A stretch of 64,000 nucleotides of DNA from a bacterium (GCA_011388275.1 DSAB01000121.1:123579-187578), one strand, 5' to 3'. Positions 25,604 to 45,260 are shown, counted from the stretch's first letter. A program made the numbers and translations. Notes: a model not told the origin generated them from the sequence alone.

Positions 25604-25981
25604 TCAATCTTTCAGGATACGTATTCTTCGGATTAATGCTTCTTTACCCCGAACGATTCGAATCGGGGTTTTGCCGCATTGAGGACACGAGAAAGAGGGA
25701 AGTGCTAAATGAAAGGCGGGATCTTCCCTCAGGGTCAGTCTGCCCTGATAACCGCATGCGTCACAGGCGATTTCTCCTGCCGGCTGATGGAAGATGATTT
25801 CCGCCTCTTCGGCCGGTGTACCCTGGAATCCGTTTTTAACCCAGAACTCGATCTGGTCAGGACCCAGAAAGGTCAGCTCTCCGATTTCCAGTTCAACGGA
25901 TTCGACTTTTCGGGCGCTTTGCTTTTCGGCCTCCCGTAAAACGACCTCGACGATGGATTGCGCAATAGAGGCTTCGTGCAT
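25604..25981 (-). CDS. hypA: Ni-insertion metallochaperone HypA
   Basis: MHEASIAQSIVEVV N-terminal Ni site (MHE), and a CDACG...CPQCG zinc-ribbon pair. Confidence 0.8.
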   Translation of the reverse strand: MHEASIAQSIVEVVLREAEKQSARKVESVELEIGELTFLGPDQIEFWVKNGFQGTPAEEAEIIFHQPAGEIACDACGYQGRLTLREDPAFHLALPSFSCPQCGKTPIRIVRGKEALIRRIRILKD

Positions 25982-26659: not shown

Positions 26660-26794
26660 GGATGATCTCCAGGTTGCAGGTTTTTGGTCAACAAGCGAAC
26701 GGCCAGACAGATCAATGAAGCACCGACCGTTATAAAAATAAAAAGTAGACTTTTTATAAATAAAATGCAAGGAGAAATATACGTCAAGACACCC

Positions 26795-26823
26795 TTGACT
26801 TTTAAAGGAAATAATCCGATATT
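26795..26823 (+). promoter_or_regulatory. sigma70-like promoter candidate for fba (TTGACT-N17-GATATT)
   Basis: cccTTGACTtttaaaggaaataatccGATATTg in an AT-rich divergent intergenic region about 30 nt upstream of the fba RBS. Confidence 0.3.
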
Positions 26824-26853
26824 GAAACCGGAATCTCACAAAGGAGGATTCTC

Positions 26854-28017: not shown

Positions 28018-28064
28018 TGAATCCGTCTGTGGCACTATGAACAAAAAGGATCTCGAATCGAACC

Positions 28065-28748
28065 TTGAAACTGCTTTTGTTTGACATTGACGGCACTCTG
28101 ATGCGGACGGGCGGAGCGGGACGAATATCGATGGAGCGGGCCTTTAAAAGTGTGTATGGAGTCCGGAACGGATTCGAAGGCATTCACATGATGGGAAGGA
28201 CGGATCCGGTCATTGTTCGCGAGGCGCTGTGCAATCACGGATTGACCTGGCAGGACGACCAGGTCGAGTCATTCCGCCGGCTCTATTATGAGATTCTGAC
28301 CGAGCAGATCAAACAGCCTTTGGCCGACAAGGGATTGTGCCCGGGCATTCCTGAATTGCTTGAGGCCATTCAGGCGACCCCGGCGCTTTTTCTGGGCTTG
28401 TTGACCGGAAACTGGCGCCGGTCTGCCATGATGAAACTGGATTATTTCGGAATCCGTCCTTATTTTCCGGCTGGTGCTTTTGCCGATGATTCGGAAAAGC
28501 GGGAAGATCTGGTCGCTGTCGTTGTGGAACGCATGCTTCCCTTTACCGGAAAAATGCCCGATCCCTCGCAGGTTATTGTCATAGGCGATACGCCGATGGA
28601 CGTGGCCTGTGCGAAACCCTATGGCGCGAAAAGCGTGGCCGTGGCCACGGGTTTCCACTCACCGGAAGTGCTGAAAGCCGCCAGGCCGGATCGAATATTC
28701 AGCAATCTCGCTGACACAAAAAGAGTCCTTGCCTATTTCAAGGATTGA
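28065..28748 (+). CDS. HAD-superfamily phosphatase
   Basis: N-terminal D-I-D-G-T-L motif I and a late GDTPMD motif IV. The track reads MKLLLFDIDGTL with a TTG start, while my reading of the printed bases suggests an in-frame ATG at 28038. The start is unresolved within about 30 nt. Confidence 0.65.
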   Translation: MKLLLFDIDGTLMRTGGAGRISMERAFKSVYGVRNGFEGIHMMGRTDPVIVREALCNHGLTWQDDQVESFRRLYYEILTEQIKQPLADKGLCPGIPELLEAIQATPALFLGLLTGNWRRSAMMKLDYFGIRPYFPAGAFADDSEKREDLVAVVVERMLPFTGKMPDPSQVIVIGDTPMDVACAKPYGAKSVAVATGFHSPEVLKAARPDRIFSNLADTKRVLAYFKD

Positions 28749-28762
28749 TCTATACGCCGGAC

Positions 28763-28793
28763 TCCGGAGCCTTTTTAAATGGAAGGCTCCGGA
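28763..28793. terminator. bidirectional intrinsic-terminator-like hairpin between convergent HAD phosphatase and ferredoxin genes
   Basis: tccggagcc (28763-28771) pairs perfectly with ggctccgga (28785-28793) around a 13-nt T/A-rich loop. Located in the 83-bp gap between the two convergent stop codons. Confidence 0.4.
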
Positions 28794-28831
28794 TAAAATC
28801 CAGACTTCGGCATGAAAGACCGGCGGCCAAA

Positions 28832-29026
28832 TTACTCCGAAAAGTGAATCACTTCCGCCGGACACAGATCAGCGGCTTCGCGGATACATGCGTCCTGGGC
28901 GGAAAGATCGATCTCTTCAAGAACTTCCGCGGTCTCGTCACCCATTACAAACACAGCCGGGCAGGTTGAGACACAGAGTTCACACAGGGTGCATCCTTCC
29001 TCAATCCAGACTTTGTTGATGGCCAT
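28832..29026 (-). CDS. small ferredoxin (single-cluster [4Fe-4S]/[3Fe-4S] type)
   Basis: 64 aa with CTLCELCVSTCP plus a distal C...CP pair. Last gene of a minus-strand operon. Confidence 0.7.
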   Translation of the reverse strand: MAINKVWIEEGCTLCELCVSTCPAVFVMGDETAEVLEEIDLSAQDACIREAADLCPAEVIHFSE

Positions 29027-29053
29027 GACAGTCTCCTTTTTTGAATGAAATAG

Positions 29054-31387
29054 CTACGGGATTTTTTCCGCGGATTTTCGAAACAGATATTCAGAATCCA
29101 CTGCCGGTTCGTCGTTACGGTGAGCCTGCATCAGCCGTATTCGACGGGGCATGAGTTCCTTCAGATTGTCCCCGTACATCAACGGAGTTTCGCCGGCACC
29201 GGATTGCGTCATGAATGCCACGCCGGAATCGGAAAGCTCCATCAGTTCGCAGCTGTTGGCGATTTCCAGATCGATGGCATGCCGCAGTGTTTTCAGAAAG
29301 AATTTCTTTTTAGCGGATTCCAGAATGGATCCGTGTACGCAATAGATCCAGGCGGCCACATTCCTCTGAGTGATCATCCAGCAGCGCAAACCGCGAAGCC
29401 GGATCCATTGATCATAAAAAACTGAAGCCGCGTTCGGGTCGGTCGCTACGGACTGCAATGTGATGATGGCGTTCTGAAGCGGCGGCAGGACGTGTTTGTC
29501 GATTCGTTCCATGTCCCTGCCCGCTTTTTCCGGAGTGGTCAGCTGAAAAAGCACATCACGGGCCAGGTCCACGTTATTGGGATTATGGGGGGTGGTGCAC
29601 ATAAAATCTTCATAATACGCGCGCTCTTCACCGGGTATCGCCTCGATATTCGGAACCAGCGGACGGGTCCACAGGCGGTACCAGTTGAATCCCAGCGAGG
29701 CGTAAAGGGGAGTGATGACCGGGAAGGCCATGACCGTTTCTTCGGTCAGGGTCCAGGCTTCGAGAAGAACAGACTTTTTGGCTCCGGCCCATTTCCGGCC
29801 CAGGCGGTCGAGGGTTTTCTCCACGGATTCTGAGGATTGATACTGAAAGACGCGCATGACTTCGTGATTGGCATCAAAGGGAACCGCCTCGGGAGGATGG
29901 GTACCGCCTGTATGTGCCAAATGCCGGACACCATTCCGGAACAGAAGCTTAAGCCGCCGATGGGTCAGCCGGGGGTAAGGAATTCCCAGCAGAGGAAGGA
30001 ACATTCCATAGGGGCCTGCGGTAAAGTAAAAATGGGGAATGCCTCCCCGGCTTTGAATCTGTTTCATGAAAGGTTTTTCTTCGGAATCGAAACGGTTCTG
30101 ATAAACTGTTCCGGCGTTGATGGGTGAATCGGGATAGCGGGGATGCCGGTAGGGCATGTCCCATCCTTTCATGGTCAGACTCGCGGTTTCCACATCCAGC
30201 TGCCGGCCAAGGCCCTGCCGAATGACATCGTGTTCGCCGTAAAAAGATTCCATGCGGATGATGACGCGAAAATGCGGATTGATCTCCGAGGCCGCTTCAA
30301 GAAGCGTTCGAAAGAATCGAAGGGCGTTTTCGCCGGCCGCCCGTGCGATCTCCTCCTGATTTTTCCACTCTCGGATCAGATAGGCTCCTCCGTTTCGGCC
30401 TACATAGAGTGACTGTGTATGTTCGAAACCCGCACCGCTGTCATTGGTCCAGATCGTCAGGTATTCCAGATCAGGGACCTCCTGAAGGAGGTTTTGGATC
30501 ATTTCCCGGTAATGATCGAGCACCGCAGGATGGGCGGTGGTCATATTGTACCGGGGTTTGAAGCTTCGGAACGGATGATCGACCCGGGCGCCCCGCAGCA
30601 TGGGGTAACGATGGAAAAAGGATTCCGGAACGGAACGGGGTTCGAAGCAGAGCAGGCCCGGCCTGATGCCGTACCGGGCGGCCAGGCGGGCGTTGGCTTT
30701 CAGCCTTCCCAGATTTCGGGACAGATAATAGGCGGGATATACGCCGCGGTTTAGCCGGCTCGAGACGAATTGATCCAGAGCGGGGCAGTAAGTATAGAAC
30801 ATGGGATAGGCCTCACCGGGCGGGCCGGTTTCCAGGCCCATGGGGAAGTCCAGCGCATTGACTTCCACATGGGTAAAACCCATCCGGGCCAGCTTCAGAA
30901 CATAGGTTTCGGGGTCGAGATTTTTCTGTATGCGGCCCTCCTGCGTCAGGAAAAAATCATAGGCGGACCGCTGCCAGGAAAAAGCGGGTATAAATATTCG
31001 GCCTTTTTGATAGGTTGACAGGCTGTCATGCTTTCGGGTTTCCACCCAGGTGCACAGGAATCCGAACAGATATTCCGGATCGGATGCAATGAGCGATCCA
31101 TTGCCCCGGGCGTCCAGTTGGAAAAAAACCGCGGCCTTGTCCGAATCGGCGGCATTCCGAGATCCATCACGGGGCACGGATCCGATATCGATTCGGAATC
31201 CTCCTGTGGGATTCCGTTTGATCTCCTCAGTCCCGATGTGCCGATTCAGGGCGGTGCAAAGCCATTGGGCCGCGCTGCGGGTGACCGGATAATCGGGGTT
31301 ATAATGGATTGTTTGAATGCACTGCAAGGCATCGATTAGTTTCATGGGTTCTTCCTCTATCGGTCTTTTTAGAGTGTGCCGCATCAA
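29054..31387 (-). CDS. large uncharacterised cytoplasmic protein (777 aa)
   Basis: Long ORF with ordinary codon usage and no signal peptide, TM helix or Cys cluster. No family recognisable by eye; segments such as LTIWTNDSGAGFEHT hint at a TIM-barrel glycosidase-like fold. The ATGA overlap with the upstream stop supports translation. Confidence 0.5.
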   Translation of the reverse strand: MMRHTLKRPIEEEPMKLIDALQCIQTIHYNPDYPVTRSAAQWLCTALNRHIGTEEIKRNPTGGFRIDIGSVPRDGSRNAADSDKAAVFFQLDARGNGSLIASDPEYLFGFLCTWVETRKHDSLSTYQKGRIFIPAFSWQRSAYDFFLTQEGRIQKNLDPETYVLKLARMGFTHVEVNALDFPMGLETGPPGEAYPMFYTYCPALDQFVSSRLNRGVYPAYYLSRNLGRLKANARLAARYGIRPGLLCFEPRSVPESFFHRYPMLRGARVDHPFRSFKPRYNMTTAHPAVLDHYREMIQNLLQEVPDLEYLTIWTNDSGAGFEHTQSLYVGRNGGAYLIREWKNQEEIARAAGENALRFFRTLLEAASEINPHFRVIIRMESFYGEHDVIRQGLGRQLDVETASLTMKGWDMPYRHPRYPDSPINAGTVYQNRFDSEEKPFMKQIQSRGGIPHFYFTAGPYGMFLPLLGIPYPRLTHRRLKLLFRNGVRHLAHTGGTHPPEAVPFDANHEVMRVFQYQSSESVEKTLDRLGRKWAGAKKSVLLEAWTLTEETVMAFPVITPLYASLGFNWYRLWTRPLVPNIEAIPGEERAYYEDFMCTTPHNPNNVDLARDVLFQLTTPEKAGRDMERIDKHVLPPLQNAIITLQSVATDPNAASVFYDQWIRLRGLRCWMITQRNVAAWIYCVHGSILESAKKKFFLKTLRHAIDLEIANSCELMELSDSGVAFMTQSGAGETPLMYGDNLKELMPRRIRLMQAHRNDEPAVDSEYLFRKSAEKIP

Positions 31388-32646
31388 GCTCGACGTGCCA
31401 GGGTTTCAACGGCATTGAGCAATCGGGTGACATCGCCGGATCCATTGCATACATGAAAGGAGACCCGGACGGCCTCCAGACCGCCTTCAGAGACCACACG
31501 CACTCTGAACCCCATCTTCCCCAGCGCAGCTGATGCGTCCCGGTAATTCAGACGATCCATCGAGAAGGTGATCATCGATGAACGGAACTCCGGCTCTGCG
31601 GGAGAGAGAATACGGATGCCATGAATTTGTTTCAGGCCGTGATAAAACGTTTCGGACAGAACCCGGTTGTGTTCCCAAATTCGGGGTATGGAGATGGCCT
31701 GTATAAAATCCATGGCCTCTCCCAGTCCGATAAACAGAGCCTCGTTCTGAGTGGCGAATTCATAGCGGCGGGCGGTCGGATGCAGTTTCAGAGTCCGTGC
31801 CTGCAAATCATATCCGTCGTCGGAATAGGCCCCGACCGTCACGGGCCTCAGGGTATCCAGCAACGCGGGACGGACATACAGAATACCCGTGCGCCGGGGC
31901 CCTAAAAGCCATTTATGTCCGCTGACGGCGTAGAAGTCGGCGTCAATATCCTGCATGCTGACGGGCAGGGCTCCCACGGACTGCGCTCCGTCAAGGGCCA
32001 GCCAGGCGCCGTGCCGGTGAACAAGGTTCGCGATTTCACGGATCGGAAAGCACTGACCCGTGGTGCACGTGACGTGACTGATAAAAACCAGACGCGTACG
32101 ACGGCTCAGAAGCCGGCCGATGCTTTCGATCTGTTTCAGGCCTTCGTTCAGATCGGGTTCAAATGTTTGAATGACGATTCCGTCACGCTGCATTCGATTG
32201 AGCAGCGCAATATTCAGGGCGGGGTGTTCATGAGAGGATGTGATGATTTCGTCTTCCCGCTTCAGGGGCAGACCGTTGATGATGATGTTAATGCCCTCGG
32301 TGGCGGTGCCGGTCAAGGCCAGAGAATCCGCTTCACAGTCGAATATACGGGCCGCCTTTTCTTTTATTTGCAGCCAGGTGTCCATGTCATGGCCCGGTTT
32401 CGGACGTATTTCTGCCCGATCCATGGCCGTTTTCACGCATTGCCGGACCATGGCGGGAAGAGGGCCGATTCCTCCGGTATTAAGGTATGTGTAGCCTTCC
32501 GGAAAGGCGAACTGTTTTCGCACGAGGGCCCAGAACCGGGGATCGTCCTTTAAGTGATTCAGCGTTCGGGCATCGATCCGGTGATGCGGTGACAGGGCCC
32601 AGGTGCAGGCCGCTGTCAGGGCGGACAGAAAATGTCTTCGCTCCAT
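31384..32646 (-). CDS. class V aminotransferase-fold PLP-dependent enzyme with twin-arginine (Tat) signal
   Basis: MERRHFLSALTAACTWALSPHH matches the S/T-RRxFL Tat motif. SGHKWLLGP is the PLP-lysine motif of fold-type I class V enzymes (cysteine desulfurase/isopenicillin-N-epimerase-like). Start trimmed to MERRHF. Confidence 0.7.
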   Translation of the reverse strand: MERRHFLSALTAACTWALSPHHRIDARTLNHLKDDPRFWALVRKQFAFPEGYTYLNTGGIGPLPAMVRQCVKTAMDRAEIRPKPGHDMDTWLQIKEKAARIFDCEADSLALTGTATEGINIIINGLPLKREDEIITSSHEHPALNIALLNRMQRDGIVIQTFEPDLNEGLKQIESIGRLLSRRTRLVFISHVTCTTGQCFPIREIANLVHRHGAWLALDGAQSVGALPVSMQDIDADFYAVSGHKWLLGPRRTGILYVRPALLDTLRPVTVGAYSDDGYDLQARTLKLHPTARRYEFATQNEALFIGLGEAMDFIQAISIPRIWEHNRVLSETFYHGLKQIHGIRILSPAEPEFRSSMITFSMDRLNYRDASAALGKMGFRVRVVSEGGLEAVRVSFHVCNGSGDVTRLLNAVETLARRA

Positions 32647-32650
32647 GGTT

Positions 32651-34138
32651 TTATTCCTTCCTGAGTCGTATTTCAACCGTTTCTTTACCGCGATGTCCCG
32701 TCCAGTCCGCGTACAGGCTGTTTTCGATTCGGTTCTGCTGAAAGGAAATGGTTCTGCCTTCAGCCTGAATACGATCGGCCACAGTCCCCGGGGGAAGCAG
32801 TATATGGTATTCGATCTTTTTAGCCGGAGACCGGATTTCCAGTCGCATGTTCCCGCGGCATTCATAGGAATAGGAAGTTTCGGCCTGACCGGAAGGATAC
32901 CCGACCCGGACACGCGCCTGTTCCACCCCTGCGGCGCTCCATCTCGGGCAGAAACGGAGTCTGTCGAAGCAGCGGCCGCAGTCCTGAATGCCCGCCAGGC
33001 CCTCGACAAAGGCCCAGAGCATCGCGCTGCTGCCCCATCCGTCCGTGGATGTGGCTTCCGGACTGGTGCTGGTATCGGGAGTCGACGGGGTCCCGTCCGG
33101 AAAGTACCAGAGAAAGCTTTTTCCGGTTGATTCGATCATTCGTGCATAACGGTTCAGAATATCCACTCCATATATTTCCATTCCGTGTTCCAGGGCGGCC
33201 CTGGCCATCTCACCCCCCACCAGCGGCATGATGCCGCCGTTGACATACGCTCCGGGCGTAAGCTTGTCATCTCCGAAAAATGCGGGCGGAAAGGGCGGGT
33301 CTATGGAAAACCATTCGGCGAAAAGGTTTTCGCGTCTTCGGGAGCGGTATTCATTCAGTATGGAAACCGCCATTCGATGGTCCGCCGCTCCGCGGTTGAC
33401 GGCCATCGGATTGCTGAGACTGAGCTGACGGGCGGTCTCAACCTCTGGGACATCAACGGGGATCAGCGGTACGAAATGGGTGTAGAAACGCCCGTTCCAG
33501 CAGAGCCGGTTCATGCGGTCTTTGATGTCCATAGCCCTGGACAGCCAATACCGGGACTCTTTGGTCCTGTGGAAACGGCTCAGTACTCCGGCCAGAAGGA
33601 CCATGGCTTCATAGAGGCCGCTGTTGTCTCCATGCATGATACCCCAGACCGTATGCTTATCGATCTGAAATTGCAGCCAGTCATGACGCCTTCCTGTATA
33701 GGCGAAATCCCAGGTGTCGATGGTGTAGGGACGTTTTAAAAGTCCTTCGGAAGGATCCCAGCGCCATGGATGGGTGAGGCTGTATTCAAGGGCGGCTTTC
33801 AGCGAAGGAATCAACGACTGAATCCATGAATCATCACCGCAGGCCTGCCAGGCCAAAAAGGCGGCTTTGACGAACCGGTATTCCACGTCGGCTTCCACCG
33901 GAACGCGGACGTATTTGGTCCAGTTTTCCTTTTCGCAGGGAGGCTTCTCCGGAAACGTCGTGAAATAATCGAAAATACGGCCGTTTCGTGCCTGCGTCTC
34001 CGCGAAATGGGTCACCGTACTGGTGAGATCCTTTTCAAAATAACGGACGCCCCTCAGCATGTCGCTGTAATCCCGAATCCATACAGAACGGGCATCGGGC
34101 GACCGGTATCCGCGTATGAGTGCGCCGTCGATGTTCAT
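32651..34138 (-). CDS. hypothetical protein, possibly six-hairpin glycosidase-like
   Basis: 495 aa, no signal peptide, aromatic-rich segments (TIDTWDFAYTGRRHDW, YVNGGIMPLVGGEMA) reminiscent of (alpha/alpha)6 glycosidases. Assignment is weak. Confidence 0.4.
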   Translation of the reverse strand: MNIDGALIRGYRSPDARSVWIRDYSDMLRGVRYFEKDLTSTVTHFAETQARNGRIFDYFTTFPEKPPCEKENWTKYVRVPVEADVEYRFVKAAFLAWQACGDDSWIQSLIPSLKAALEYSLTHPWRWDPSEGLLKRPYTIDTWDFAYTGRRHDWLQFQIDKHTVWGIMHGDNSGLYEAMVLLAGVLSRFHRTKESRYWLSRAMDIKDRMNRLCWNGRFYTHFVPLIPVDVPEVETARQLSLSNPMAVNRGAADHRMAVSILNEYRSRRRENLFAEWFSIDPPFPPAFFGDDKLTPGAYVNGGIMPLVGGEMARAALEHGMEIYGVDILNRYARMIESTGKSFLWYFPDGTPSTPDTSTSPEATSTDGWGSSAMLWAFVEGLAGIQDCGRCFDRLRFCPRWSAAGVEQARVRVGYPSGQAETSYSYECRGNMRLEIRSPAKKIEYHILLPPGTVADRIQAEGRTISFQQNRIENSLYADWTGHRGKETVEIRLRKE

Positions 34139-34267
34139 ATCCAGCGTGTCCTGCGTGAGAAAGGATTTGATACGCGGATACAGTTCGTCCCAGCGCTTGT
34201 GACCGGTCCGAATTTCTATTTCGGTTTGAATGGCTGTCCTCCGTTGCTGTCGGTAACGCGCGGACTG

Positions 34268-34957
34268 CTATCTCGATGATCCCACGGTCAGAACACAGGA
34301 TTTCAGAATATGCCGGGCACTGGTAATCCCCGAGAGATCGGGAATCGGCCGGGAGACAGGGTCCAGCTGGTCTGATCGTCCTGTCAGAACGGGTTCGGCC
34401 CTGAAGTCCGGTACGACCCGAAACGGTACGGCATAGATCAGCGAGGGCTGGCCGTTTCCATCCGGGTCCGGCAGGCCGCCCTCGAGTCTCGGCGGAAATG
34501 AGGCGTTGTAATCGCCGGATATATTCAATTCCAGAAAAAGGGTCCATGACGAGCCGCGAGGAAGGCGGGTTCGGATTGTCAGGTTTCGGACAGGAGTGGC
34601 GCCGGTCAGGGCGTCGGGAAGCGGATTCAGCACGCCCGGCGCCGGATTTCCGGTGCGCCGCACATACCGGCTGACCCAGATGGGAAGGGATGTGGGACAT
34701 TCGACCTTTCCTTCCCAATATCCGGTTGCGGTACGGCGGCTGACCCATACGGTTCGCATCGCATCTTCTTTTTCCACCCACACGGCGATTTGCGGAGGTT
34801 CCCCGAAATTGCTCTCCTGATACACATTGCGGTTCAGCCGTACGGTAAGGGTGACCGGGAGTTCATCGGGTCCGGCCGAATCCGAAGCGGGCTCTTCGTT
34901 CATACCGAAAACCGGGATCAACAAAGAGATCCATAAAGCGAGATGAAGAGAAACCAA
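34268..34957 (-). CDS. secreted DUF2271-like protein
   Basis: Signal peptide MVSLHLALWISLLIPVFG. IAVWVEKEDAMRTVWVS and DALTGATP resemble the conserved DUF2271 blocks (AVWIED..., D-x-x-SGAT). Confidence 0.5.
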   Translation of the reverse strand: MVSLHLALWISLLIPVFGMNEEPASDSAGPDELPVTLTVRLNRNVYQESNFGEPPQIAVWVEKEDAMRTVWVSRRTATGYWEGKVECPTSLPIWVSRYVRRTGNPAPGVLNPLPDALTGATPVRNLTIRTRLPRGSSWTLFLELNISGDYNASFPPRLEGGLPDPDGNGQPSLIYAVPFRVVPDFRAEPVLTGRSDQLDPVSRPIPDLSGITSARHILKSCVLTVGSSR

Positions 34958-36313
34958 CTATTCGACTCCTTCGAATTGCAAAGGTTTTCGCTCTTTCCAC
35001 CGGCCCCGAGTAAAGTCCGGAAAGTTCACCGGACGTGATCGTCTGGCCACGGAGATCTCCGTCAGCTCCGAAATCACGCTCCAGTCGACCGCGTCATAGA
35101 CGTCCATGTCCACAGGCCGGCCGTGACGGAGGGCCTCAATAAGACGCCAGTCTTCGATGAAGTCGGCGCCGCCGTGACCGGCTCCGCGTGCCGCGTCTTC
35201 AGCCATACGAATGAGAGGATGTTCGAATTCCTCTCTGTAATTTTCAAGGGGCTCCCAGCGGTGCCGGGGGCTGCGTCCTTCAATATGAATACGGTCCGGC
35301 CAGCCCTGAGTGATACCCCGGGTTCCCTGAATGAGATTGATGCGGCTGTACGGTCTGGGCAGGTTGGTATCATGGACCAGGGTGATGGTACGGCCTTTGA
35401 CGGTTTTGATCAGACAGGTGTTCACATCGCCGCAGGCATAGTCGGCCTTTGCGAAGGGATGATCGGCTCCCAGTTTTTCGGCGGCATACAGTTTAAGACC
35501 CCTTGCCGGAGAACTCATAGACACCAGATAGTCGAAACGGTCGCCACGGTTGATGTTCATGCATTGGGCGATGGGGCCCAGGCCGTGTGTGGGATACAGA
35601 TTGCCGTTGCGCTTCATGGAATGATAAATCCGCCATTGTTTTTCATAGGCGCTTCCGGTTTTCATATTCCGCAGATCATGATTATAGGCCCCTTCGCCGT
35701 GAAGCAGCTCGCCGAAAAGCCCGTGCCTGACCATGTTGAGTATCATCATCTCCGGACCCATATAGCAGACATTTTCCAGCATTACGCAATGCTTGTTGGT
35801 TTTTTCCGCGGTTTCGACCAGTTCCCAGCATTCGTCGATAGTGAGGGCGGCCGGCACCTCCGTGGCTGTGTGGCTGCCGGTCTTCATGGCTTCCACGCAG
35901 ATCGGGACATGCCATTTCCATGGCGTGGCGGTCATGACCAGATCCAGATCTTCTTCGGCGCACATGCGCCTGAAATCCGTTTCACTCCGGGAATAGCCGC
36001 GGGGCTCCGGCTTGCCCGCGGCCCGGGCCCAGCTCTGCATGCGAGCCACTTTTTCTTCCACGATATCGCAGACCGCGATCAATTCCGCCCCTTCGATGCG
36101 GAGAAGATTGCGAACATGTCCGGAACCCTGATTTCCCACCCCGACAAACGCGACTCGTACGGGGTCGATGGGACCCGAAGAGGCGGGATTGTACTCGATT
36201 GCGGACTGTTTTGCGCATCGGGGTGCGGTCACGGTCAGGGCCGTTCCCACGCCGGCGGCGGCCAGACCGATGAAGTCACGTCTGGATACAGGTTGCGAAA
36301 AATTGTTTTTCAT
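34958..36313 (-). CDS. Gfo/Idh/MocA-family NAD(P)-dependent oxidoreductase with Tat signal (GFOR/GH109-like)
   Basis: VSRRDFIGLAAAGVGTA Tat signal and a VAFVGVGNQGSGHV Rossmann motif, 451 aa. Both periplasmic glucose-fructose oxidoreductase and GH109 alpha-N-acetylgalactosaminidases share this Tat + tightly-bound-NAD architecture. Confidence 0.75.
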   Translation of the reverse strand: MKNNFSQPVSRRDFIGLAAAGVGTALTVTAPRCAKQSAIEYNPASSGPIDPVRVAFVGVGNQGSGHVRNLLRIEGAELIAVCDIVEEKVARMQSWARAAGKPEPRGYSRSETDFRRMCAEEDLDLVMTATPWKWHVPICVEAMKTGSHTATEVPAALTIDECWELVETAEKTNKHCVMLENVCYMGPEMMILNMVRHGLFGELLHGEGAYNHDLRNMKTGSAYEKQWRIYHSMKRNGNLYPTHGLGPIAQCMNINRGDRFDYLVSMSSPARGLKLYAAEKLGADHPFAKADYACGDVNTCLIKTVKGRTITLVHDTNLPRPYSRINLIQGTRGITQGWPDRIHIEGRSPRHRWEPLENYREEFEHPLIRMAEDAARGAGHGGADFIEDWRLIEALRHGRPVDMDVYDAVDWSVISELTEISVARRSRPVNFPDFTRGRWKERKPLQFEGVE

Positions 36314-36335
36314 GGGAGAACCTCCATGATTAAAA

Positions 36336-36506
36336 TCAATGCCCGTTGTCTGGGTTTTTCAGGATCGAGTCCGGAGTGGCTGTCGAAAGATCCCTGAACA
36401 GGTCCCGGATATTGAATATCCCTCCGATCAGCACAACCGTGACCATGAGGCTGTAGCCGATCAGGGTGAAAATCAGAACAATTTGCCACAGAATCGTCCA
36501 GTTCAT
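36336..36506 (-). CDS. small single-TM membrane protein translationally coupled to the SSS transporter
   Basis: 56 aa: MNWTILWQIVLIFTLIGYSLMVTVVLIGGIFNIRDLFRDLSTATPDSILKNPDNGH. Its ATG overlaps the SSS stop (ATGA) and it ends 22 nt before the next gene. Not in the track as a separate entry; it lies inside a longer alternative-start ORF. Confidence 0.35.
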   Translation of the reverse strand: MNWTILWQIVLIFTLIGYSLMVTVVLIGGIFNIRDLFRDLSTATPDSILKNPDNGH

Positions 36507-38017
36507 GATGCGTTCTCCCTGTTTGCATCGGGAAAGCACAGAGAACCGATGATCATCCCTGCAGCGGCCATGACAAAGGTCATGGCACCGATGAATTTGT
36601 CCGATGCATACCAGGGGGGATCTCCCTGAGTCCACGGACCGATTCCCAGAACAGCCAGAAGACCCGCGGCCAGTGCCAGAACCGCGCCAGTGGAACTGGC
36701 CCGTTTCCAGTAGAGTCCGCCGAGCACCACGGCGAAGGCCCCCGAGAGATAGATCGTTCCGGTTACGGCCATATAATTCCACAGGGAAACAGGTGCTTCA
36801 AACCACAACCCCCAGAGAAGCAGAAACACGCCGATTCCGAGAATCGCCATTCGGGTGATCAGCAGTCTCTTTTTATCTGTCAGTGTCCGGCGATGCAGCG
36901 GGGCGACAATGTCCTGGGTGATCACCGAACTCCAGCTCAGCAGGTAGCTGTCATGCGTTGACATGAAGGCCGCGAACATGCCGGCTGCCAGAATCCCCAG
37001 AAAACCCGAAGGAATGATTTTGGCGATGAAAACGGGCATGCCGAACTGGCTGTTGAGGGGGTCGGGGCCGGTGAAGGCGTCAAGCAGAAACGGAGTCTGA
37101 GAAACAAACACAAAGGCTCCGATGCCCCACAGCATGGGAATGATTCGGCGTGCGAGAAAGGAGAGGGAACCCACGGCGTAGAGGTGTTTGGCCGTACGGG
37201 GCGATTTCACGGAAAGGGCGCGCAGGGTGGATGACTGCCAGAGGGTTCCGGTGGAAAGGCTCAGCAGAACCATGAAAAACACATAAAGAGAGCCGAACCC
37301 GGATCCTTCGGCGAGAGGATTCAGCCAGGCGTCCGCGTTTTGGGTTTCGGGAATGCTGAACAGGGCATTCCAGCCCAGATGATGGATGATGAATATGGAT
37401 CCGATAACCATGCCCCCGGACAAGACGACAAACTGGATAAAATCATTGAGAACCACGGACACCATCCCGCCCAATGTGGTATAGATCAAAACCATGATCA
37501 GCATGGATGACATGAAGATCTTCAATCCGGCAGCGTGCTGATATCCGGTCACTCCGATCATGAAACGGGCGCCGGCCTGAAGAAACAGCCCCATGTTGAG
37601 TATGCCTCCCAGGGCCAGGATGGTGCCTCCCAGTATTCGGACTTTTTTTCCGAAACGCCGTTCATAGAATTCGGGTATGGTGAGGATCTCCATGGACCGC
37701 AGCTTGTAAACAATGAGTCCGGTCAGGCCGATCACCAGTACGCATACCGATTCGATGAGGGCGATGTGAAACGCGGAGAATCCATATTTAAACCCCAGTT
37801 CCGCGTTGTACATCACCGTAACCAGGCCGAGTTCGGTCCCTGTCAGGGTGGCGACGGCCAGAAAGAGGCGAAGGTTGCGGCCTGCCACAATGAAATCGCT
37901 CATTCCGTGAATATACTTGCGAACCAGGACTCCGATGACAACGGGAATGCAGATATACACCAGCAGAATAATCCAGTCGATGCGCTGAAAATTGGTCGCG
38001 AAGATGTCCATATCCAT
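36503..38017 (-). CDS. sodium:solute symporter (SSS family)
   Basis: 504 aa, about 13 TM helices; DFIVAGRNLRLFLAVATLTGTELG is an SSS family signature region. Confidence 0.85.
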   Translation of the reverse strand: MDMDIFATNFQRIDWIILLVYICIPVVIGVLVRKYIHGMSDFIVAGRNLRLFLAVATLTGTELGLVTVMYNAELGFKYGFSAFHIALIESVCVLVIGLTGLIVYKLRSMEILTIPEFYERRFGKKVRILGGTILALGGILNMGLFLQAGARFMIGVTGYQHAAGLKIFMSSMLIMVLIYTTLGGMVSVVLNDFIQFVVLSGGMVIGSIFIIHHLGWNALFSIPETQNADAWLNPLAEGSGFGSLYVFFMVLLSLSTGTLWQSSTLRALSVKSPRTAKHLYAVGSLSFLARRIIPMLWGIGAFVFVSQTPFLLDAFTGPDPLNSQFGMPVFIAKIIPSGFLGILAAGMFAAFMSTHDSYLLSWSSVITQDIVAPLHRRTLTDKKRLLITRMAILGIGVFLLLWGLWFEAPVSLWNYMAVTGTIYLSGAFAVVLGGLYWKRASSTGAVLALAAGLLAVLGIGPWTQGDPPWYASDKFIGAMTFVMAAAGMIIGSLCFPDANRENAS

Positions 38018-38024
38018 GGATCCC

Positions 38025-39149
38025 CTATCCCATTTCGGTTGAGTCGGGAGTCCGTTTCTCTGAAAAAACCCGAATCCCCGGGCCGATGTGAATGATCATG
38101 GGCTTTCCGCCGGCCTGAGCAATGGCTTCAGCCGCGGCTTCGGCGTTTACAGGCGCGTACACGAACATGCAGCCTCCTCCTCCTGATCCGTTGATCTTTC
38201 CGCCCAGGGCGCCTGCCTTGAGGGCGGCCTGGAGCATGGCGTCGATTTTTGGAGTGGATATTTTCAGCCGGTCGCGCAGTATTTCGTGATGACGGTTGAG
38301 CAGATCTCCAAAGGTTCGACCGTCCATTTTCCGCGCAAGCATTATTTTTCTGGCGGTTTCGGTCAGATTTCTGTTTTGGATCTGTCCTTCCAGCAGGGCG
38401 GCCTGGCTTTCGTTCAGGCAGCTTTTCAATGATTCAAATCGTTCCTGCGTCAGATTTCCAAGTGTCGAAGCCGGATCTTCTTTTTTAATACAGCCGAAGG
38501 CTTCAAGCGTTCCCTTCTTGACGCGGCTCAGGATGGAAAAGGTGTCTTTGGGCTCCATCGAGTCTCCGAGCACGAAAGAACCCAAATCACCCGGCAGGGC
38601 TTCGGGAGCTCCCGGAGAGGAAAAATCGATATAGAGCAGGGAGCCCAGGCTCGAGACCATGTGATCCATCATGCCCCCCGGTTCGCCGAATTCCCTGACC
38701 TCCGCCTCATGAGCGATTCGGGCCACGGTCAAGGGGTCCAGCGCCCGCTTATCCCCGCCGGCTTTCAACAGGAAACACACCCAGGCCACCATCAGGGCCG
38801 AGGAACTGGACGTTCCGGAGTTGATGGGAATGTTTCCGCGCACCGTACACCGATAACCGGTTTTCCACGTGACTCCGTGCCTTTGAACAACCCGGATTCC
38901 GCTGCGAAAGTAATCGCGTTCTTTCCGGTATCGTACTGGCGATTCAAGAGAGACGATCTCCATGTGATGAATGTCGGGGCAGTGGACGACGAATTCCGGA
39001 CGAGGGTGAGGACGTCCGATGATTTCAATCCGCAGATCAATGGCCGCGGTGATCACCGAAAGACCCAGATAGTCCTGATGTTCCCCGAACAGGCAGATCC
39101 GTCCCGGAGCGGAGGCCCGGATCGCCTGTGCGCTGTTCGATGAATTCAT
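38025..39149 (-). CDS. GHMP kinase, galactokinase family (sugar 1-kinase)
   Basis: APGRICLFGEHQDY matches the galactokinase signature GR-x-N-L-I-GEH-x-DY. PINSGTSSSSAL is GHMP motif II and GSGGGGC is motif III. 374 aa. Confidence 0.8.
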   Translation of the reverse strand: MNSSNSAQAIRASAPGRICLFGEHQDYLGLSVITAAIDLRIEIIGRPHPRPEFVVHCPDIHHMEIVSLESPVRYRKERDYFRSGIRVVQRHGVTWKTGYRCTVRGNIPINSGTSSSSALMVAWVCFLLKAGGDKRALDPLTVARIAHEAEVREFGEPGGMMDHMVSSLGSLLYIDFSSPGAPEALPGDLGSFVLGDSMEPKDTFSILSRVKKGTLEAFGCIKKEDPASTLGNLTQERFESLKSCLNESQAALLEGQIQNRNLTETARKIMLARKMDGRTFGDLLNRHHEILRDRLKISTPKIDAMLQAALKAGALGGKINGSGGGGCMFVYAPVNAEAAAEAIAQAGGKPMIIHIGPGIRVFSEKRTPDSTEMG

Positions 39150-42028
39150 TCGCTGTGTGTCCGGTTTTTTGTTTCCGGTACCGCGTCCTCTTTGGTTTCG
39201 GTCTGTTCTGCTTTATGTGAGCTGTCTTTCGGCGCCTCCTGTGTCCAGAGCTTGATGCGCTCTTTCAGATGCTCTTCCATCTTCAGATGGGGTATTCCTT
39301 CCGTCATCCATACGGGAGCCTCGCCGCCCCTGAGATGATGATCGAAGAATTCCTTCATGCGAAGCGTATAATCTTTGCGGTTGGCCGGCTTCCGGACGCC
39401 GTGATTTTCCCCTTTATACTGAAGCATAATAACGGATTTTCCCAGCCGCCTGAGCGCGTTGTAGTATTCGATTCCCTGGTTCCAGTCAACAGCCCCATCC
39501 TTGTCGTTGTGCAGCAGAAGCAGAGGCGTCTCAACGTCCCGGGCGAAATAGACAGGCGAATTGCGCCTGTAAGCGTCATTCAATTCCCAATACCCGCCTG
39601 TGAAGCGGCCCTGCTGGCTTTCGAAAATAGGCTGATTGGCCGATCCGGTATTCCAGTAGATGGAACTGTACATGCTGATCAGGTTGGTTAAAGGAGCGCC
39701 GGCCGCGGCCGCCTTGAAACGGCCGGTTTGTGTGATGAGAAACGCCGTTTGATACCCGCCCCATGAATGGCCGTGCAGGCCGATCCGCTCGGGATCGATC
39801 ACGCCGGTCTCGATGGCCGCGTCGAGTGCCGGAAGAACGCACCACACGGCCGACATGCCGGGATCGTTGACCTTGTATTTGATGTCCGGCATCAGCACCG
39901 CGTATCCCCAGTGATTGAACAGAGAACGGCTGAATCCGCCGGTACGGGGCGGGTTGTACGTGTTCAATGTCTGGGAAAGCGTCTCGTAGATATACACAAT
40001 AGCTGGATAGGTTTTTCCTTCTTCATATTCCGCTGGCAGAAAAAGGGCTCCCTGCATTCGCTGATTGCCGGTCCCCCGGTATTCGATCAGCCGGGCTTCG
40101 GCCGTCCATGCATACTCATCCTGCCGGGGATTGGCTTCGGTCAGCCGGCGAAAACCGGACCATTCGCCGTCTGCAGTATAATAATCCGGAAACTCGCTGA
40201 AAGTTTCCCGGGTATACAGATACCGTTCCGCTTCTTCGGCTTTCATGAGGGAGCCGTACCGGGCATCGTCCCAAAAGATCATACGGGAATCTTTACCGTG
40301 TATTTGAGTAATACCCGACTTTTTATTCCATTCCCCGTAGGCGAAAAAGTAAAGCGGCAAGGAAAGATCGATGCCTTTTTCATCGGGATCCAGCTGAACC
40401 CGGCGGGCGTACCGCTTTCCCTGTGTGCGTCCATCTTTGGTCAGGTTCTTCCACTTTCTGCCCTGGATGTCCACTTGCCAGACATCCCAGTTGTCGTAGA
40501 GAAGCACATGCCGGCCGGTTTTGTCCCATCCCACCGGCCGGATCGGCGGATCGATGACGTTGTGATCGTCTTCGGTGTCGATAAAGGAAACCGGCATATC
40601 ACGGGTGATGTTCACGGGTTTTCCGCCGGCCAGTTCCACCGTGTAGTAGTGGCCGTTTTCATAATACAGAAAATGCGTGCCGGTCGGAGAGACGGTAAAA
40701 GGCCACCGGCATTTGGAAATCAGCAGATGGCGCTGCCCGTTCTTCATGTTTACGGCATAGATGTCGCGGTACCGGCGGCCGTCCAGGTTGGCCATCCAGA
40801 GATAGGGGGATTCGTCATAGCCCAGAGCCCATAGATCCTTCGGTGCGGGATAAACCAGGCGCAAACTGTCATCGGCCAGGCGATAAAAGGTGTTTTCCCG
40901 AATCCGGTAAAGAGCCGTATAGCTGAATGTTTTATCCCGTCCCGCCTGAACCTGCTGCATGGACTGCAGGCGGTCGTCGCCGTGATGCCAGATTACCAGG
41001 GCCGGTATTTCCTCGTCGTTGGAACCTGAGGATTTGTTTTCATCTTTTTCCGTATCCGCCATTTCATGAATGCCGAAGATCAGGGCGTCCAGGTTGTCGC
41101 TCCATCGGGGCCGCTGATGCGGGCTGATGGACATATGAGAAGGAAAAGCGTCATCGAGTGCCGGATCGTAAAGAGCGCGGGTCACCTCGGGCCGGTCCAG
41201 ATCCTTGAATCCCAGAATCGAGTGGTGAGACGGGCCCCCTTTCTTTTTTGCCGGTTTTACATGTTCCTTCAAAACCGTGAAGCCTTCTCCTTCTTCGGTC
41301 CAGTTCAGATTTGAGTACCGGGCCGAATCCTGCTCGAGCACCGTGACTTCACCGGATGAGAGGCGGCGCAGCTGAATGCCGTTGCCTCTCTGTTCATGGG
41401 CGTCCACCAGCCAGACCAGAAAGCGGCCGTGTTTGTCGAAGGCGAATTCCGATACATTGCCGATGTTGATCTGCTGCATGGTGTTGAGATCAACAAGAAG
41501 CAGATCCGTGCCCTGATAGCCCGAATCGTCTTTTTTCCGGGAGGCCGGGGCGTAACCGTGCAGTGCCAGCCAGCGGGACCCATGGCACAGAGCAAAATTT
41601 TGAATGCCCTTGTATTCGGTCATTCCGCCGTTTTCGAGCCTGACCAGGGCGACACTGTTTTCCGGTTGTGCTGTTCCCTTCCGGTTCTTTTTCGATTCCA
41701 TGGACGGATACACGGTAAAGGCAAGCCATCGGCCGTTGTCCGTGAACGTCAGATCGCCACGGGATGATTCTCCCGCAGGGAACCGGTAGCATTTATCCCC
41801 TTCGGTTTCCCGGATCAGAACTTTGCTGTCGCCTTCCTGAGGCACGAGGCGGCAGGCAAACCAGCTGCCGTCGCGTGAGAGGGCTGCGGATCGAATGGTT
41901 TTCCATTCCAGGATATCGGGAATGGTCAATTCCCTGGCTGAGACAGAAAAAACGGATGAAAAAGCGATGAAAACAAGGATAAAGATTCCTTGTATACGGC
42001 TGGCTGGGCGCATGGTTTTTCCTTTCAT
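39146..42028 (-). CDS. secreted S9-family serine peptidase (beta-propeller + prolyl-oligopeptidase-type alpha/beta hydrolase)
   Basis: Signal peptide MKGKTMRPASRIQGIFILVFIAFSSVFSVSA, a long propeller-like N-terminal region, and a C-terminal GHSWGGYQT (GxSxGG nucleophile elbow) with downstream Asp/His blocks (LLLHNDKDGAVD...GENHGV). Confidence 0.75.
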   Translation of the reverse strand: MKGKTMRPASRIQGIFILVFIAFSSVFSVSARELTIPDILEWKTIRSAALSRDGSWFACRLVPQEGDSKVLIRETEGDKCYRFPAGESSRGDLTFTDNGRWLAFTVYPSMESKKNRKGTAQPENSVALVRLENGGMTEYKGIQNFALCHGSRWLALHGYAPASRKKDDSGYQGTDLLLVDLNTMQQINIGNVSEFAFDKHGRFLVWLVDAHEQRGNGIQLRRLSSGEVTVLEQDSARYSNLNWTEEGEGFTVLKEHVKPAKKKGGPSHHSILGFKDLDRPEVTRALYDPALDDAFPSHMSISPHQRPRWSDNLDALIFGIHEMADTEKDENKSSGSNDEEIPALVIWHHGDDRLQSMQQVQAGRDKTFSYTALYRIRENTFYRLADDSLRLVYPAPKDLWALGYDESPYLWMANLDGRRYRDIYAVNMKNGQRHLLISKCRWPFTVSPTGTHFLYYENGHYYTVELAGGKPVNITRDMPVSFIDTEDDHNVIDPPIRPVGWDKTGRHVLLYDNWDVWQVDIQGRKWKNLTKDGRTQGKRYARRVQLDPDEKGIDLSLPLYFFAYGEWNKKSGITQIHGKDSRMIFWDDARYGSLMKAEEAERYLYTRETFSEFPDYYTADGEWSGFRRLTEANPRQDEYAWTAEARLIEYRGTGNQRMQGALFLPAEYEEGKTYPAIVYIYETLSQTLNTYNPPRTGGFSRSLFNHWGYAVLMPDIKYKVNDPGMSAVWCVLPALDAAIETGVIDPERIGLHGHSWGGYQTAFLITQTGRFKAAAAGAPLTNLISMYSSIYWNTGSANQPIFESQQGRFTGGYWELNDAYRRNSPVYFARDVETPLLLLHNDKDGAVDWNQGIEYYNALRRLGKSVIMLQYKGENHGVRKPANRKDYTLRMKEFFDHHLRGGEAPVWMTEGIPHLKMEEHLKERIKLWTQEAPKDSSHKAEQTETKEDAVPETKNRTHSE

Positions 42029-42029
42029 G

Positions 42030-42782
42030 TCAGGTTGATTTGAGGGATTTGACCATCGATGAGACGGCTTCGCCGAGCAGCATGGCGTCAATGCCGCAGG
42101 CGATGAGCGTATACCCTTCGGCGATTCGTGAACGAACGGCGTCGGCATTCACTCCGAATATGCCGACCGGCAGGCCTGCATCCGCCGCCGATTGACGAAC
42201 GGTTTCGACTGCGGTTTCAACTTCGGCGTCCCTGACCTGTCCCGGCTTGTTCATGCTTCCCGACAGGTCATAGGGACCGATAAACACGGCATCCACTCCT
42301 GGAATCCGGACGATCTCGTCGATATTCCGGACACCGTCGATATGCTCGATTTGAATAATGACCGCCATCTGATCGTTCGCGTTCTCTATGTAATTCTGAA
42401 AAGTCGCTCCATATCCCTGCGCCCGGGCAATACCCACGTCGCGCTGACCCAGGGGCGGGTATTTGCAGCAGCGAATGATACGGCGTGTCTGTTCGGGGGT
42501 GTTCACGTGGGGTATCAAAACTCCATCAGGACCCGTGTCCATGACCTTTTTAATCCAGACTTCGTCGTGGGAAGGGACGCGGACCACGGCCGGACAGTTT
42601 CCCGCGGCTTGAAGCAGCCTTTGAACTTCAAGTATGCCGAAGGCTCCGTGCTCCATGTCCATGAAGATCCAGTCCACACCTGAGAGGGCGATTATCTCGG
42701 CGGCTTCCGGAGAAGCCAGGGAAAGAAATGTGCCGATAAGCGGTTTTTGCGCGCGGAGCAGCTGACGAAAAGAACGGTTCAT
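42030..42782 (-). CDS. HpcH/HpaI-family 2-keto-3-deoxy-acid aldolase
   Basis: 250 aa TIM barrel with ...IFMDMEHGAFG, VVRVP and IQIEHIDGVRNIDEI blocks typical of GarL/RhmA/HpaI class II pyruvate aldolases. Confidence 0.8.
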   Translation of the reverse strand: MNRSFRQLLRAQKPLIGTFLSLASPEAAEIIALSGVDWIFMDMEHGAFGILEVQRLLQAAGNCPAVVRVPSHDEVWIKKVMDTGPDGVLIPHVNTPEQTRRIIRCCKYPPLGQRDVGIARAQGYGATFQNYIENANDQMAVIIQIEHIDGVRNIDEIVRIPGVDAVFIGPYDLSGSMNKPGQVRDAEVETAVETVRQSAADAGLPVGIFGVNADAVRSRIAEGYTLIACGIDAMLLGEAVSSMVKSLKST

Positions 42783-42943
42783 GGACTCCTCCTGAAAGAA
42801 ATGTGTGCTTCAGTTGGCGAGAGGCCGTGATTGATACAAACAGCATGGCTGTAAAATAATGAATTCCCCCCTGGATGTCAACGGATTCGTGAAAGAACCG
42901 GGAATGAACCGGCCTTATTTTGAACCGGCAAGGTAAATGCCGG

Positions 42944-42972
42944 TTGACTTTCAGGCTGTAAATAATTACTAT
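42944..42972 (+). promoter_or_regulatory. sigma70-like promoter candidate for the SSS transporter gene (TTGACT-N17-TACTAT)
   Basis: cggTTGACTttcaggctgtaaataatTACTATaaaac about 40 nt upstream of the ATG at 43012. Preceded by an aaccggc/gccggtt hairpin. Confidence 0.3.
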
Positions 42973-43011
42973 AAAACGGTCAGAATGAAAACAGATTCCG
43001 GAGAAAAACGG

Positions 43012-45114: not shown

Positions 45115-45260
45115 AAGCCTCTTGATGACCGGCCGGCCGGGGTCGCGGAGCGCAGGAGAGAATCATGCCGGAGAGAAGCATCAGGATGGCGGGGCAGTTT
45201 GTGGCACGCATCTTTTTCCTTTCATGTTTTTCGGTGATGGCAAATCATTTCACTGTCCGG

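Follow-up and report, generated by a model that had tools for sequence, protein, structure and literature searches.

The stretch of bacterial DNA analysed here (64,000 nucleotides, GCA_011388275.1 DSAB01000121.1:123579-187578, referred to below as the window) encodes a class V enzyme dependent on pyridoxal 5'-phosphate (PLP), whose N-terminus has the anatomy of a signal peptide for export by twin-arginine translocation (Tat). The favoured reading, to which we assign a probability of roughly 0.5, is that this protein (the PLP enzyme) would work as a lyase or transaminase similar to PvdN and C-DES; exported by itself, it would act, prior to uptake, on an alpha-amino-acid moiety of a glycoconjugate. 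The same figure covers, jointly with export, its placement, as a homodimeric fold-type I enzyme, in that branch of the SufS-like class V family which comprises PvdN and C-DES and lacks the cysteine. Tat-signal class V PLP enzymes are already known as a kind, thanks to PvdN, and to our knowledge Tat-exported PLP enzymes have been described experimentally solely from pyoverdine tailoring (PvdN, PtaA). Literature searches on the gene cassette described below, on periplasmic class V PLP enzymes beyond these two and on glycosidases as Tat hitchhikers found nothing relevant. Two aspects are new: a large family of class V PLP enzymes with Tat-type signals distributed over several phyla, together with many more distant signal-carrying relatives, and the fixed place of its gene in a conserved sugar-catabolic locus, beside two abundant unannotated families with glycosidase folds (here u526 and u763). 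The features on which the argument rests are the following:

31384..32646, minus strand: class V (fold-type I) PLP-dependent enzyme of 420 aa (NCBI HHS13961.1), from translation and Pfam PF00266
32569..32646, minus strand: predicted Tat-type signal peptide, residues 1-26, with the codons of the arginine pair at 32640-32635
31912..31914, minus strand: codon of Lys245, the PLP Schiff-base lysine of the SGHKW motif, invariant in 30/30 sequences and aligned with the lysine of SufS SGHK
32656..32662, minus strand: Shine-Dalgarno-like AGGAAGG read from the sequence, 9 nt before the ATG of the PLP gene and within the 3' end of u526
32651..34231, minus strand: u526, the upstream partner, 526 aa, ATT start (NCBI HHS13962.1)
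29054..31345, minus strand: u763, the downstream partner, 763 aa (NCBI HHS13960.1)

The class of the enzyme is well defined. Pfam PF00266 (Aminotran_5) matches residues 93-409 with 202.3 bits against a gathering threshold of 21.5 (E=1.4e-59), and the lysine motif, found in the context AVSGHKWLLGP and encoded at 31923-31909, contains K245; the assignment to fold-type I class V made in a preliminary description of this DNA is thus upheld. Across an alignment of 30 sequences H141, D219, Q222, H244, K245, R252 and T253 are invariant, as are E296, T299, R381, R383, R394, H398 and N401. Profile alignment to SufS structures places K245, H141, D219, Q222, R383 and R394 on positions that bind PLP and the substrate alpha-carboxylate; H141 and D219 correspond to the ring-stacking histidine and to the aspartate that contacts the pyridine nitrogen. 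The arginine kept from SufS is, following what is established for that enzyme, presumably the holder of the alpha-carboxylate, and its retention suggests that the substrate would be an alpha-amino acid.

The translated product, encoded on a metagenome contig of 313 kb (JGI 3300022547), begins with MERRHFLSALTAACTWALSPHHRIDA. Its ATG, at 32646, lies 4 nt past the TAA stop of u526 (32653-32651), and both genes are tightly coupled. Between M1 and the conserved mature domain (from about W39 onward) there is no ATG, GTG or TTG codon, and the next methionine, M66, falls within the conserved NTGG region; a later start excluding the arginine pair was therefore ruled out. Homologues begin at M-x-R-R, with RNR, RN or RK instead of RR in some clades. 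Given that no alternative start precedes the mature domain and that the homologues start in this way, the arginine pair lies inside the product, and the concern that it might be upstream of the true start is removed, as the single possible start gives M-E-R-R-H-F-L. A longer, TTG-started open reading frame (ORF) of 541 aa reaching 33009 was also considered as the product and rejected: it overlaps u526 by 360 nt and the starts of the homologues disagree with it. Antisense to the PLP gene there is a 212-aa ORF (31915-32553, plus strand), which probably arises as an artefact from the GC-rich coding sequence on the other strand.

The predicted signal is composed of a very short n-region (ME-RR), a 14-residue h-region (FLSALTAACTWALS) and a basic c-region (PHHRIDA), with cleavage possibly taking place after I-D-A. 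The motif itself, E-R-R-H-F-L-S, has R3, R4, F6 and L7. The pattern RRxFL is present within the first 30 residues of 77 of 120 homologues of the PLP enzyme, as against 0/118 homologues of u763 and 0/113 of u526. Among the 103 PLP homologues that could be scored, the h-region has about 15 aa and a mean Kyte-Doolittle hydropathy of 1.4-1.9, the c-region opens with a basic residue in 98, and an AxA-like site occurs in 99. More distant relatives, with 30-45% identity, were taken from a HMMER scan of 1.84 billion cluster representatives. Of 41 that possess an N-terminal extension and are approximately 420-450 aa long, 37 show a twin-arginine motif, many of them in the textbook form SRRxFLK, whereas the motif appears in just 2 of 28 relatives lacking the extension (382-395 aa), both apparently extension carriers that were mis-sorted. 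These counts bear out the twin-arginine motif recognised in the preliminary description, and the abundance of divergent Tat-signal relatives in metagenomes makes its remark that periplasmic PLP enzymes are uncommon seem overstated.

The shortness of the n-region is no obstacle, because the Tat substrate MdoD also has its arginine pair at positions 3 and 4: in its structure R3, R4, F6, I7 and K8 contact TatC (PMC13323110), a spacing of RR and F6 identical to that of the PLP enzyme (R3, R4, F6, I7 in the former; R3, R4, F6, L7 in the latter). The sequence LTAAC was considered as a lipoprotein signal and discarded, since the -3 position is wrong, the cysteine is glycine in homologues and it stands just 9 residues past the arginine pair. 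The organism is diderm, as LptD is encoded at 54930-57797 (plus strand), and it probably uses Tat, given that the GH109-like (glycoside hydrolase family 109-like) neighbour of the PLP gene, described below, passes the Tat-signal model TIGR01409; no tat genes were seen in the annotated part of the 64-kb window. Taken together, Tat export of the PLP enzyme is likely. The export of a cofactor-loaded class V enzyme by this route has a direct precedent in PvdN and PtaA, which are both Tat-exported with PLP bound (PMC6206403), so this part of the preliminary description is also supported.

The genomic context was analysed in 85 loci, obtained from homologue look-ups and from a scan of 185,579 species genomes; all of them, as well as all 80 genome hits, come from metagenome-assembled genomes or single-cell assemblies. 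The hosts belong to KSB1, Calditrichota, Electryonea, Aminicenantes, Bacteroidales, Gemmatimonadota, Acidobacteriota and Kryptonia, and the PLP family as a whole counts over 1,700 clusters when grouped at 90% identity. By tblastn, a homologue of u763 lies directly downstream of the PLP gene in 56 of the 85 loci, while 46 have a homologue of u526 directly upstream; strand and PLP gene agree in every case. Many of the other loci are short contigs. The gaps in the cassette of the window are 4 nt (u526/PLP) and 38 nt (PLP/u763).

De novo clustering of the neighbouring ORFs, annotated with Pfam and NCBIfam, revealed a recurrent gene order: a 701-aa symporter of the SSF family, u526, the PLP enzyme, u763, a xylose-isomerase-like TIM-barrel protein (AP_endonuc_2), an Fe-S flavoenzyme of the Old Yellow Enzyme (OYE) type, a flavin adenine dinucleotide (FAD) flavoenzyme similar to TfrA/NadB, a short-chain dehydrogenase/reductase (SDR) and a KHG/KDPG-aldolase-kinase fusion (KDPG, 2-keto-3-deoxy-6-phosphogluconate), the last of these scoring over the cut-off of NF041633. 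The locus is often enlarged by GH38, Gfo/Idh/MocA proteins, an epimerase of the AGE family, several proteins of URO-D/MtaA-like type and one of about 780 aa (c18) that has a Sec-type signal and matches no family. Membrane symporter aside, only the PLP enzyme and this 780-aa protein carry signals in the recurrent locus. Extended loci (for instance L008, L027, L041, L062, L067 and L083) contain 3-5 paralogues of the URO-D/MtaA-like proteins and sometimes a B12-binding protein; the Fe-S OYE and FAD flavoenzymes are fused into one protein of 1116 aa in L083, and the extended loci of Bacteroidales also encode electron transfer flavoprotein alpha/beta, an acyl-CoA dehydrogenase and a membrane protein of the CCG/Fe-S kind.

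A different context is found in a Kryptonia-type subgroup (L015, L022, L026, L028, L029, L034, L035 and L036), whose members are about 48% identical to the PLP enzyme of the window. There the PLP gene follows an FAA_hydrolase gene, which ends 13-27 nt upstream, and precedes a PMT_2 (GT-C) membrane glycosyltransferase gene, which starts 4 nt downstream and whose product faces the periplasm. Both u526 and u763 are absent and a signal-like N-terminus is kept. Since these members retain the signal without the cassette, it belongs to the PLP enzyme itself.

The two partners are abundant, with more than 2,000 homologous clusters each (at 55-62% identity), and no sequence match was found for either of them in Pfam (E up to 10), NCBIfam or the PDB (E up to 1). 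No signal peptide was detected in the homologues counted above, in any phylum. The ATT start codon of u526 (34231-34229) has GGAGGA 7 nt upstream; the ATG-started form of 495 aa called by JGI loses the conserved N-terminal segment EIEIRTG..DELYPRIKSFL, whereas NCBI holds the 526-aa form. The 229-aa ORF before it ends with a TAG stop (34270-34268) that shares the frame of u526.

Fold comparison was informative where sequence searches drew a blank. The AlphaFold2 models are confident overall, with a predicted template modelling score (pTM) of 0.90 for u526 (alignment A3) and 0.88 for u763 (alignment A2). As modelled, u526 is an (alpha/alpha)6-barrel of the glycoside hydrolase (GH)/phosphorylase type with a C-terminal beta-sandwich, and u763 consists of an N-terminal alpha/beta domain, a TIM barrel and a helical domain, like GH89, GH84, GH67, GH115, GH138 and GH20. 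Segments with a predicted local distance difference test (pLDDT) below 50 (residues 95-107, 172-187 and 309-333 of u526; 171-184, 254-264, 303-327 and 583-592 of u763) coincide with the most invariant motifs, for example DTWDFAYT in u526 and WTNDSGAGFEHTxSLYVGRNGG and CTTPHNPNNVD in u763. These invariant segments could be active-site, ligand-binding or interface loops.

According to the favoured reading, the PLP enzyme would fold and bind PLP in the cytoplasm and would then be exported by the Tat pathway, through its M-E-R-R-H-F-L signal, to the periplasm of a diderm cell. There it would act on a free alpha-amino-acid moiety, most probably one whose side chain links it to a sugar or glycan, by beta-elimination (as a lyase) or by transamination. 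The adjacent sodium:solute symporter would import the product, which in the cytoplasm would be degraded by u526, u763, the xylose-isomerase-like protein, the Fe-S OYE and FAD flavoenzymes, the SDR and the fusion of 2-keto-3-deoxygluconate (KDG) kinase and KDPG aldolase; the route would end with KDG, KDPG and finally pyruvate plus glyceraldehyde-3-phosphate. An S9 hydrolase and the GH109-like enzyme of the window, both predicted to be exported, fit with the trimming of glycopeptides. Export, the compartment of each step, the type of reaction and the glyco-amino-acid nature of the substrate are all inferred.

Several observations weigh against this proposal. The PLP enzyme reaches 14.3 bits with TIGR01409 (E=0.039), below the cut-off of 16.7, and homologues score 13.9 or 16.3 bits or give no match. 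The Bacteroidales members (L002, L067, L068, L071, L073 and L076) start with MNRNRFL or MNRNQFL, that is, with RNR or a single arginine instead of RR, even though h-region, AxA-like site and cassette are retained; this may mean that the Tat motif is relaxed or that export has switched to Sec. RK replaces RR in the Kryptonia-type members. Besides, the PLP enzyme is the sole protein of the cassette with a signal and its coupled neighbours look cytoplasmic, so that a pathway split between compartments must be assumed, as the neighbours and nearly all other conserved genes of the locus lack signals. The link of the family to glycan catabolism is not universal, because the Kryptonia-type members sit in the FAA_hydrolase-PLP-PMT_2 context. 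Turnover by a periplasmic transaminase would need an amino acceptor.

Some of these points would be explained if the N-terminal peptide were not a working export signal at all and the enzyme stayed in the cytoplasm or at the membrane periphery, the arginine pair being a relic or serving another role such as docking of the partners. The sub-threshold TIGR01409 score, the degenerate RN, RNR and RK motifs and the absence of signals from the other enzymes of cassette and locus, several of which use ATP, NAD(P)H or flavins, agree with this explanation, which also gives the simplest pathway topology. We nevertheless consider it unlikely. About 95% of the homologues, including those with a degenerate arginine pair, preserve the complete n/h/c architecture with its basic c-region and AxA-like site, whereas a useless peptide of 25-35 residues would be expected to decay or vanish; the signal-less relatives of 382-395 aa form a separate group, distant relatives carry the textbook SRRxFLK, and Tat export is proven for PvdN, the closest of the characterised relatives. 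Even if the signal were non-functional, the family would be a useful counter-example for Tat predictors.

A second explanation accepts export and extends it to the partners: the PLP enzyme, as the signal-bearing subunit of a hetero-oligomer, would carry u526 and/or u763 across the membrane by Tat hitchhiking, as PaoA carries PaoB and PaoC. The entire cassette would then act in the periplasm, with the symporter importing the monomers produced. One signal among three adjacent, coupled and co-conserved genes is what this would predict, and neither partner has gained a signal of its own in any homologue analysed. Glycosidases of diderm bacteria that act on oligosaccharides are usually periplasmic, which counts in the same direction. 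Moreover, the partners are unusually conserved for glycosidase-like proteins, with mean pairwise identities of 62% and 56% as compared with 51% for the PLP enzyme, and the invariant, poorly predicted loops of both models would fit interface or ligand sites. A natural three-component hitchhiker does exist, PaoABC, but at 135 kDa it is described among the largest Tat cargoes (PMC4273604), whereas fold-type I PLP enzymes are obligate dimers and the complex proposed here would reach at least 210-380 kDa. Among the best 150 of the 1.84 billion representatives, all of them 487 aa or shorter, none was found in which the PLP domain is fused to either partner. Mirror-tree correlations between the distance matrices of the three cassette proteins are moderate (r=0.38-0.56, 12 complete loci), too weak, and from too few loci, to separate interaction from operon linkage. 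Family members without partners retain the signal, cytoplasmic glycosidases beside symporters are common, and the GH38 protein of the same loci is signal-less too. Hitchhiking seems therefore doubtful.

A more specific proposal, which is put forward very tentatively and regarded as improbable, is that the cassette would serve an undescribed route for the breakdown of glyco-amino acids after glycoprotein degradation. The PLP enzyme would be a periplasmic beta-lyase for glycosyl-Ser/Thr (or glycosyl-Cys) that frees the glycan from the last amino acid, and the partners would represent new GH families that act on this glycan. Related to this, the core of the protein O-glycans of the FCB group (Fibrobacteres-Chlorobi-Bacteroidetes) is Man(-Rha)(-GlcA)-O-Ser/Thr, often O-methylated (PMC12871550), and it is perhaps a candidate substrate. 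The extended locus, with its GH38 mannosidase, GH78-rhamnosidase fold, GH67/GH115-glucuronidase architecture, KDG-ending route and MtaA-like methyltransferases, fits with this proposal. A variant of it would have the three proteins leave the cell in a single non-redox complex, a Tat hitchhiker of unusually large size.

There remains the question of sulfur chemistry. The PLP enzyme might be taken for a periplasmic cysteine desulfurase, selenocysteine lyase or other sulfur-mobilising enzyme, given that JGI labels its homologues "selenocysteine lyase/cysteine desulfurase" and that its top family matches are SufS (TIGR01979, 185.7 bits) and SufS structures (about 1e-36). However, all of its best NCBIfam matches score far below their cut-offs: 185.7 against 475.1 for SufS, 113.3 against 493.6 for CsdA (TIGR03392) and 69 against 643 for IscS. 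In the profile alignment the SufS loop GHHCAqplmkwl, which carries the catalytic cysteine, is replaced in the family by VxEAGL, with 8-9 residues deleted and no cysteine. The single cysteine nearby, in HVCN, had been pointed out as a possible active-site residue, but it is not conserved: the family consensus is FHVYN, with tyrosine in most homologues, and the position aligns with the tyrosine of SufS FYiYN. No SufE, SufU, CsdE, SufBCD or Isc genes were found in the operon of the window or among the recurrent neighbours of the 85 loci. Because the loop is deleted and the HVCN cysteine is tyrosine in most homologues, the PLP enzyme, as judged by sequence, is not a persulfide-forming desulfurase, and the wider idea of a sulfur-mobilising enzyme is very improbable. 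The missing loop suggests an opened active site like that of lyase-type relatives, and a cystine C-S lyase activity of the C-DES kind, which requires no catalytic cysteine, is possible.

The PLP gene belongs to a minus-strand run of ten genes extending from 42782 to 28832. It is the eighth of them, a middle gene, and does not open the operon as had been proposed. The remaining genes of the run, together with a divergent symporter gene, are these:

42030..42782, minus strand: HpcH/HpaI aldolase, first gene of the run
39146..42028, minus strand: S9 (prolyl-oligopeptidase family) hydrolase of about 960 aa with a Sec-type signal, N-terminus MRPASRIQGIFILVFIAFSSVFSVSA (Pfam Peptidase_S9, JGI call)
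38025..39149, minus strand: GHMP sugar kinase, galactokinase-like, without signal (Pfam GalKase_gal_bdg, GHMP_kinases_N, GHMP_kinases_C)
36503..38017, minus strand: sodium:solute symporter, 504 aa (Pfam SSF)
34958..36313, minus strand: GH109-like Gfo/Idh/MocA oxidoreductase with a canonical predicted Tat signal, SRRDFIGLAAAG (Pfam PF21252, PF01408)
34268..34957, minus strand: ORF of 229 aa (211 aa according to JGI) with a hydrophobic N-terminus and no family match, lineage-specific
28832..29026, minus strand: ferredoxin-like ORF of 64 aa (Fer4_13), last gene of the run (JGI call with Pfam annotation, locus L001)
42937..45114, plus strand: 725-aa symporter of the SSF family, divergent, sharing 67% identity with the 701-aa symporter that lies ahead of the cassette in 25 other loci

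The run had been described as an operon of secreted carbohydrate-active proteins, which is not supported for its conserved part. Three of its products are predicted to be exported, namely the S9 hydrolase (Sec-type), the GH109-like protein (Tat) and the 229-aa ORF, with its hydrophobic N-terminus; on the other hand, u526 and u763 never carry a signal and the conserved locus consists mostly of soluble nucleotide- or flavin-dependent enzymes. The signal of the GH109-like protein (SRRDFIGLAAAGVGTALTVTA) scores 23.4 bits with TIGR01409, over the cut-off, and this protein is a second candidate Tat substrate encoded some 2.3 kb upstream of the PLP gene.

When positions 28000-45500 were scanned for promoters and terminators, the counts did not exceed those for shuffled sequence. 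The divergent gap 42782-42937 contains the two best sites of promoter-like type, a result that is no more than suggestive. The genes for AP_endonuc_2, OYE, FAD and SDR proteins, which usually come after the cassette, are absent from the window, which does hold a symporter of the 701-aa type, a GH38 fragment and a homologue of a further cassette-accompanying protein (u676). The last two, which stand 26 kb from the cassette, are listed below with other genes of the window:

2-790, minus strand: GH38 alpha-mannosidase fragment at the window edge, 58% identical to a gene that accompanies the cassette in other phyla
823-2838, minus strand: 671-aa protein without Pfam match, 44% identical to a gene that accompanies the cassette in other phyla
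25604-26839, minus strand: hypA and hypB (hydrogenase nickel insertion)
26854-28017, plus strand: class II fructose-bisphosphate aldolase

If the favoured reading were true, it would add a new periplasmic PLP reaction to the turnover of glycoconjugates, and the partners would be two candidate new families of glycoside hydrolases. The cassette would also offer a test case for the division of a pathway between periplasm and cytoplasm or, if the partners were exported as well, for the maximum size of Tat cargo.

The known systems resemble the cassette in different ways. Among hitchhikers, PaoABC and HybOC have one signal-bearing subunit beside signal-less partners, as in the cassette (PMC4273604); they differ in being redox-cofactor enzymes of 135 kDa or less, whereas the complex considered here would be much larger. 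The analogy with LmbF and CcbF, from lincosamide biosynthesis, is one of mechanism only: they use glycosyl-amino-acid substrates and are cytoplasmic and biosynthetic. LmbF is a PLP beta-lyase that eliminates the sugar thiol from S-glycosyl-L-cysteine (PMC11794154), and because of this a glyco-amino-acid substrate would be chemically feasible for the PLP enzyme.

Within class V, the PLP enzyme falls outside the curated PvdN, SufS, CsdA, IscS and EgtE families. SufS and CsdA give the top scores for the central and C-terminal domains, with which the lysine, histidine, aspartate, glutamine and both arginines are common; the Cys loop and the Suf partners are theirs, while the PLP enzyme has the signal and scores far below their cut-offs. 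For the N-terminal domain the closest solved relative is PvdN, next C-DES and then Egt2. Similarity to C-DES (the L-cystine C-S lyase of Synechocystis, PDB 1ELQ/1N2T) and Egt2/EgtE is full-length (residues 43-410); these enzymes lack the Cys loop as well and carry out beta-elimination without a catalytic cysteine, but they are cytoplasmic, have no signal, occur in unrelated contexts and show low identity to the PLP enzyme.

PtaA of Pseudomonas fluorescens is a Tat-exported PLP enzyme that acts on a tethered amino acid in the periplasm (PMC6206403). It is described there only as a "normal" PLP-containing transaminase. The nearest parallel is PvdN of Pseudomonas (PDB 5I90/5HH9), which is also a class V enzyme with a twin-arginine signal and the motif TSSHEH, and without the catalytic cysteine of SufS; it is exported in folded form, and its substrate is a glutamate tethered through the side chain, with alpha-amino and alpha-carboxyl groups free (PMC6206403). 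That the PLP enzyme is an orthologue of PvdN, tailoring a siderophore by oxidative decarboxylation of a tethered glutamate, is hardly credible in spite of the common TSSHEH motif and of full-length alignments that include the signal (residues 2-413 on the NCBIfam model NF051467; the family profile on residues 3-422 of the PvdN chain), as the score is 118.5 bits against a cut-off of 650, no genes for non-ribosomal peptide synthetases (NRPS), pvd functions or siderophore transport were found in the window or the 85 loci, and uncultured lineages of the FCB group and of Acidobacteriota make up most of the hosts. The two systems thus differ in host phyla and in context, which is pyoverdine/NRPS synthesis for PvdN and, for the PLP gene, a place between glycosidase-like genes in a sugar-catabolic locus, where PvdN-like oxidative chemistry on another tethered amino acid is possible.

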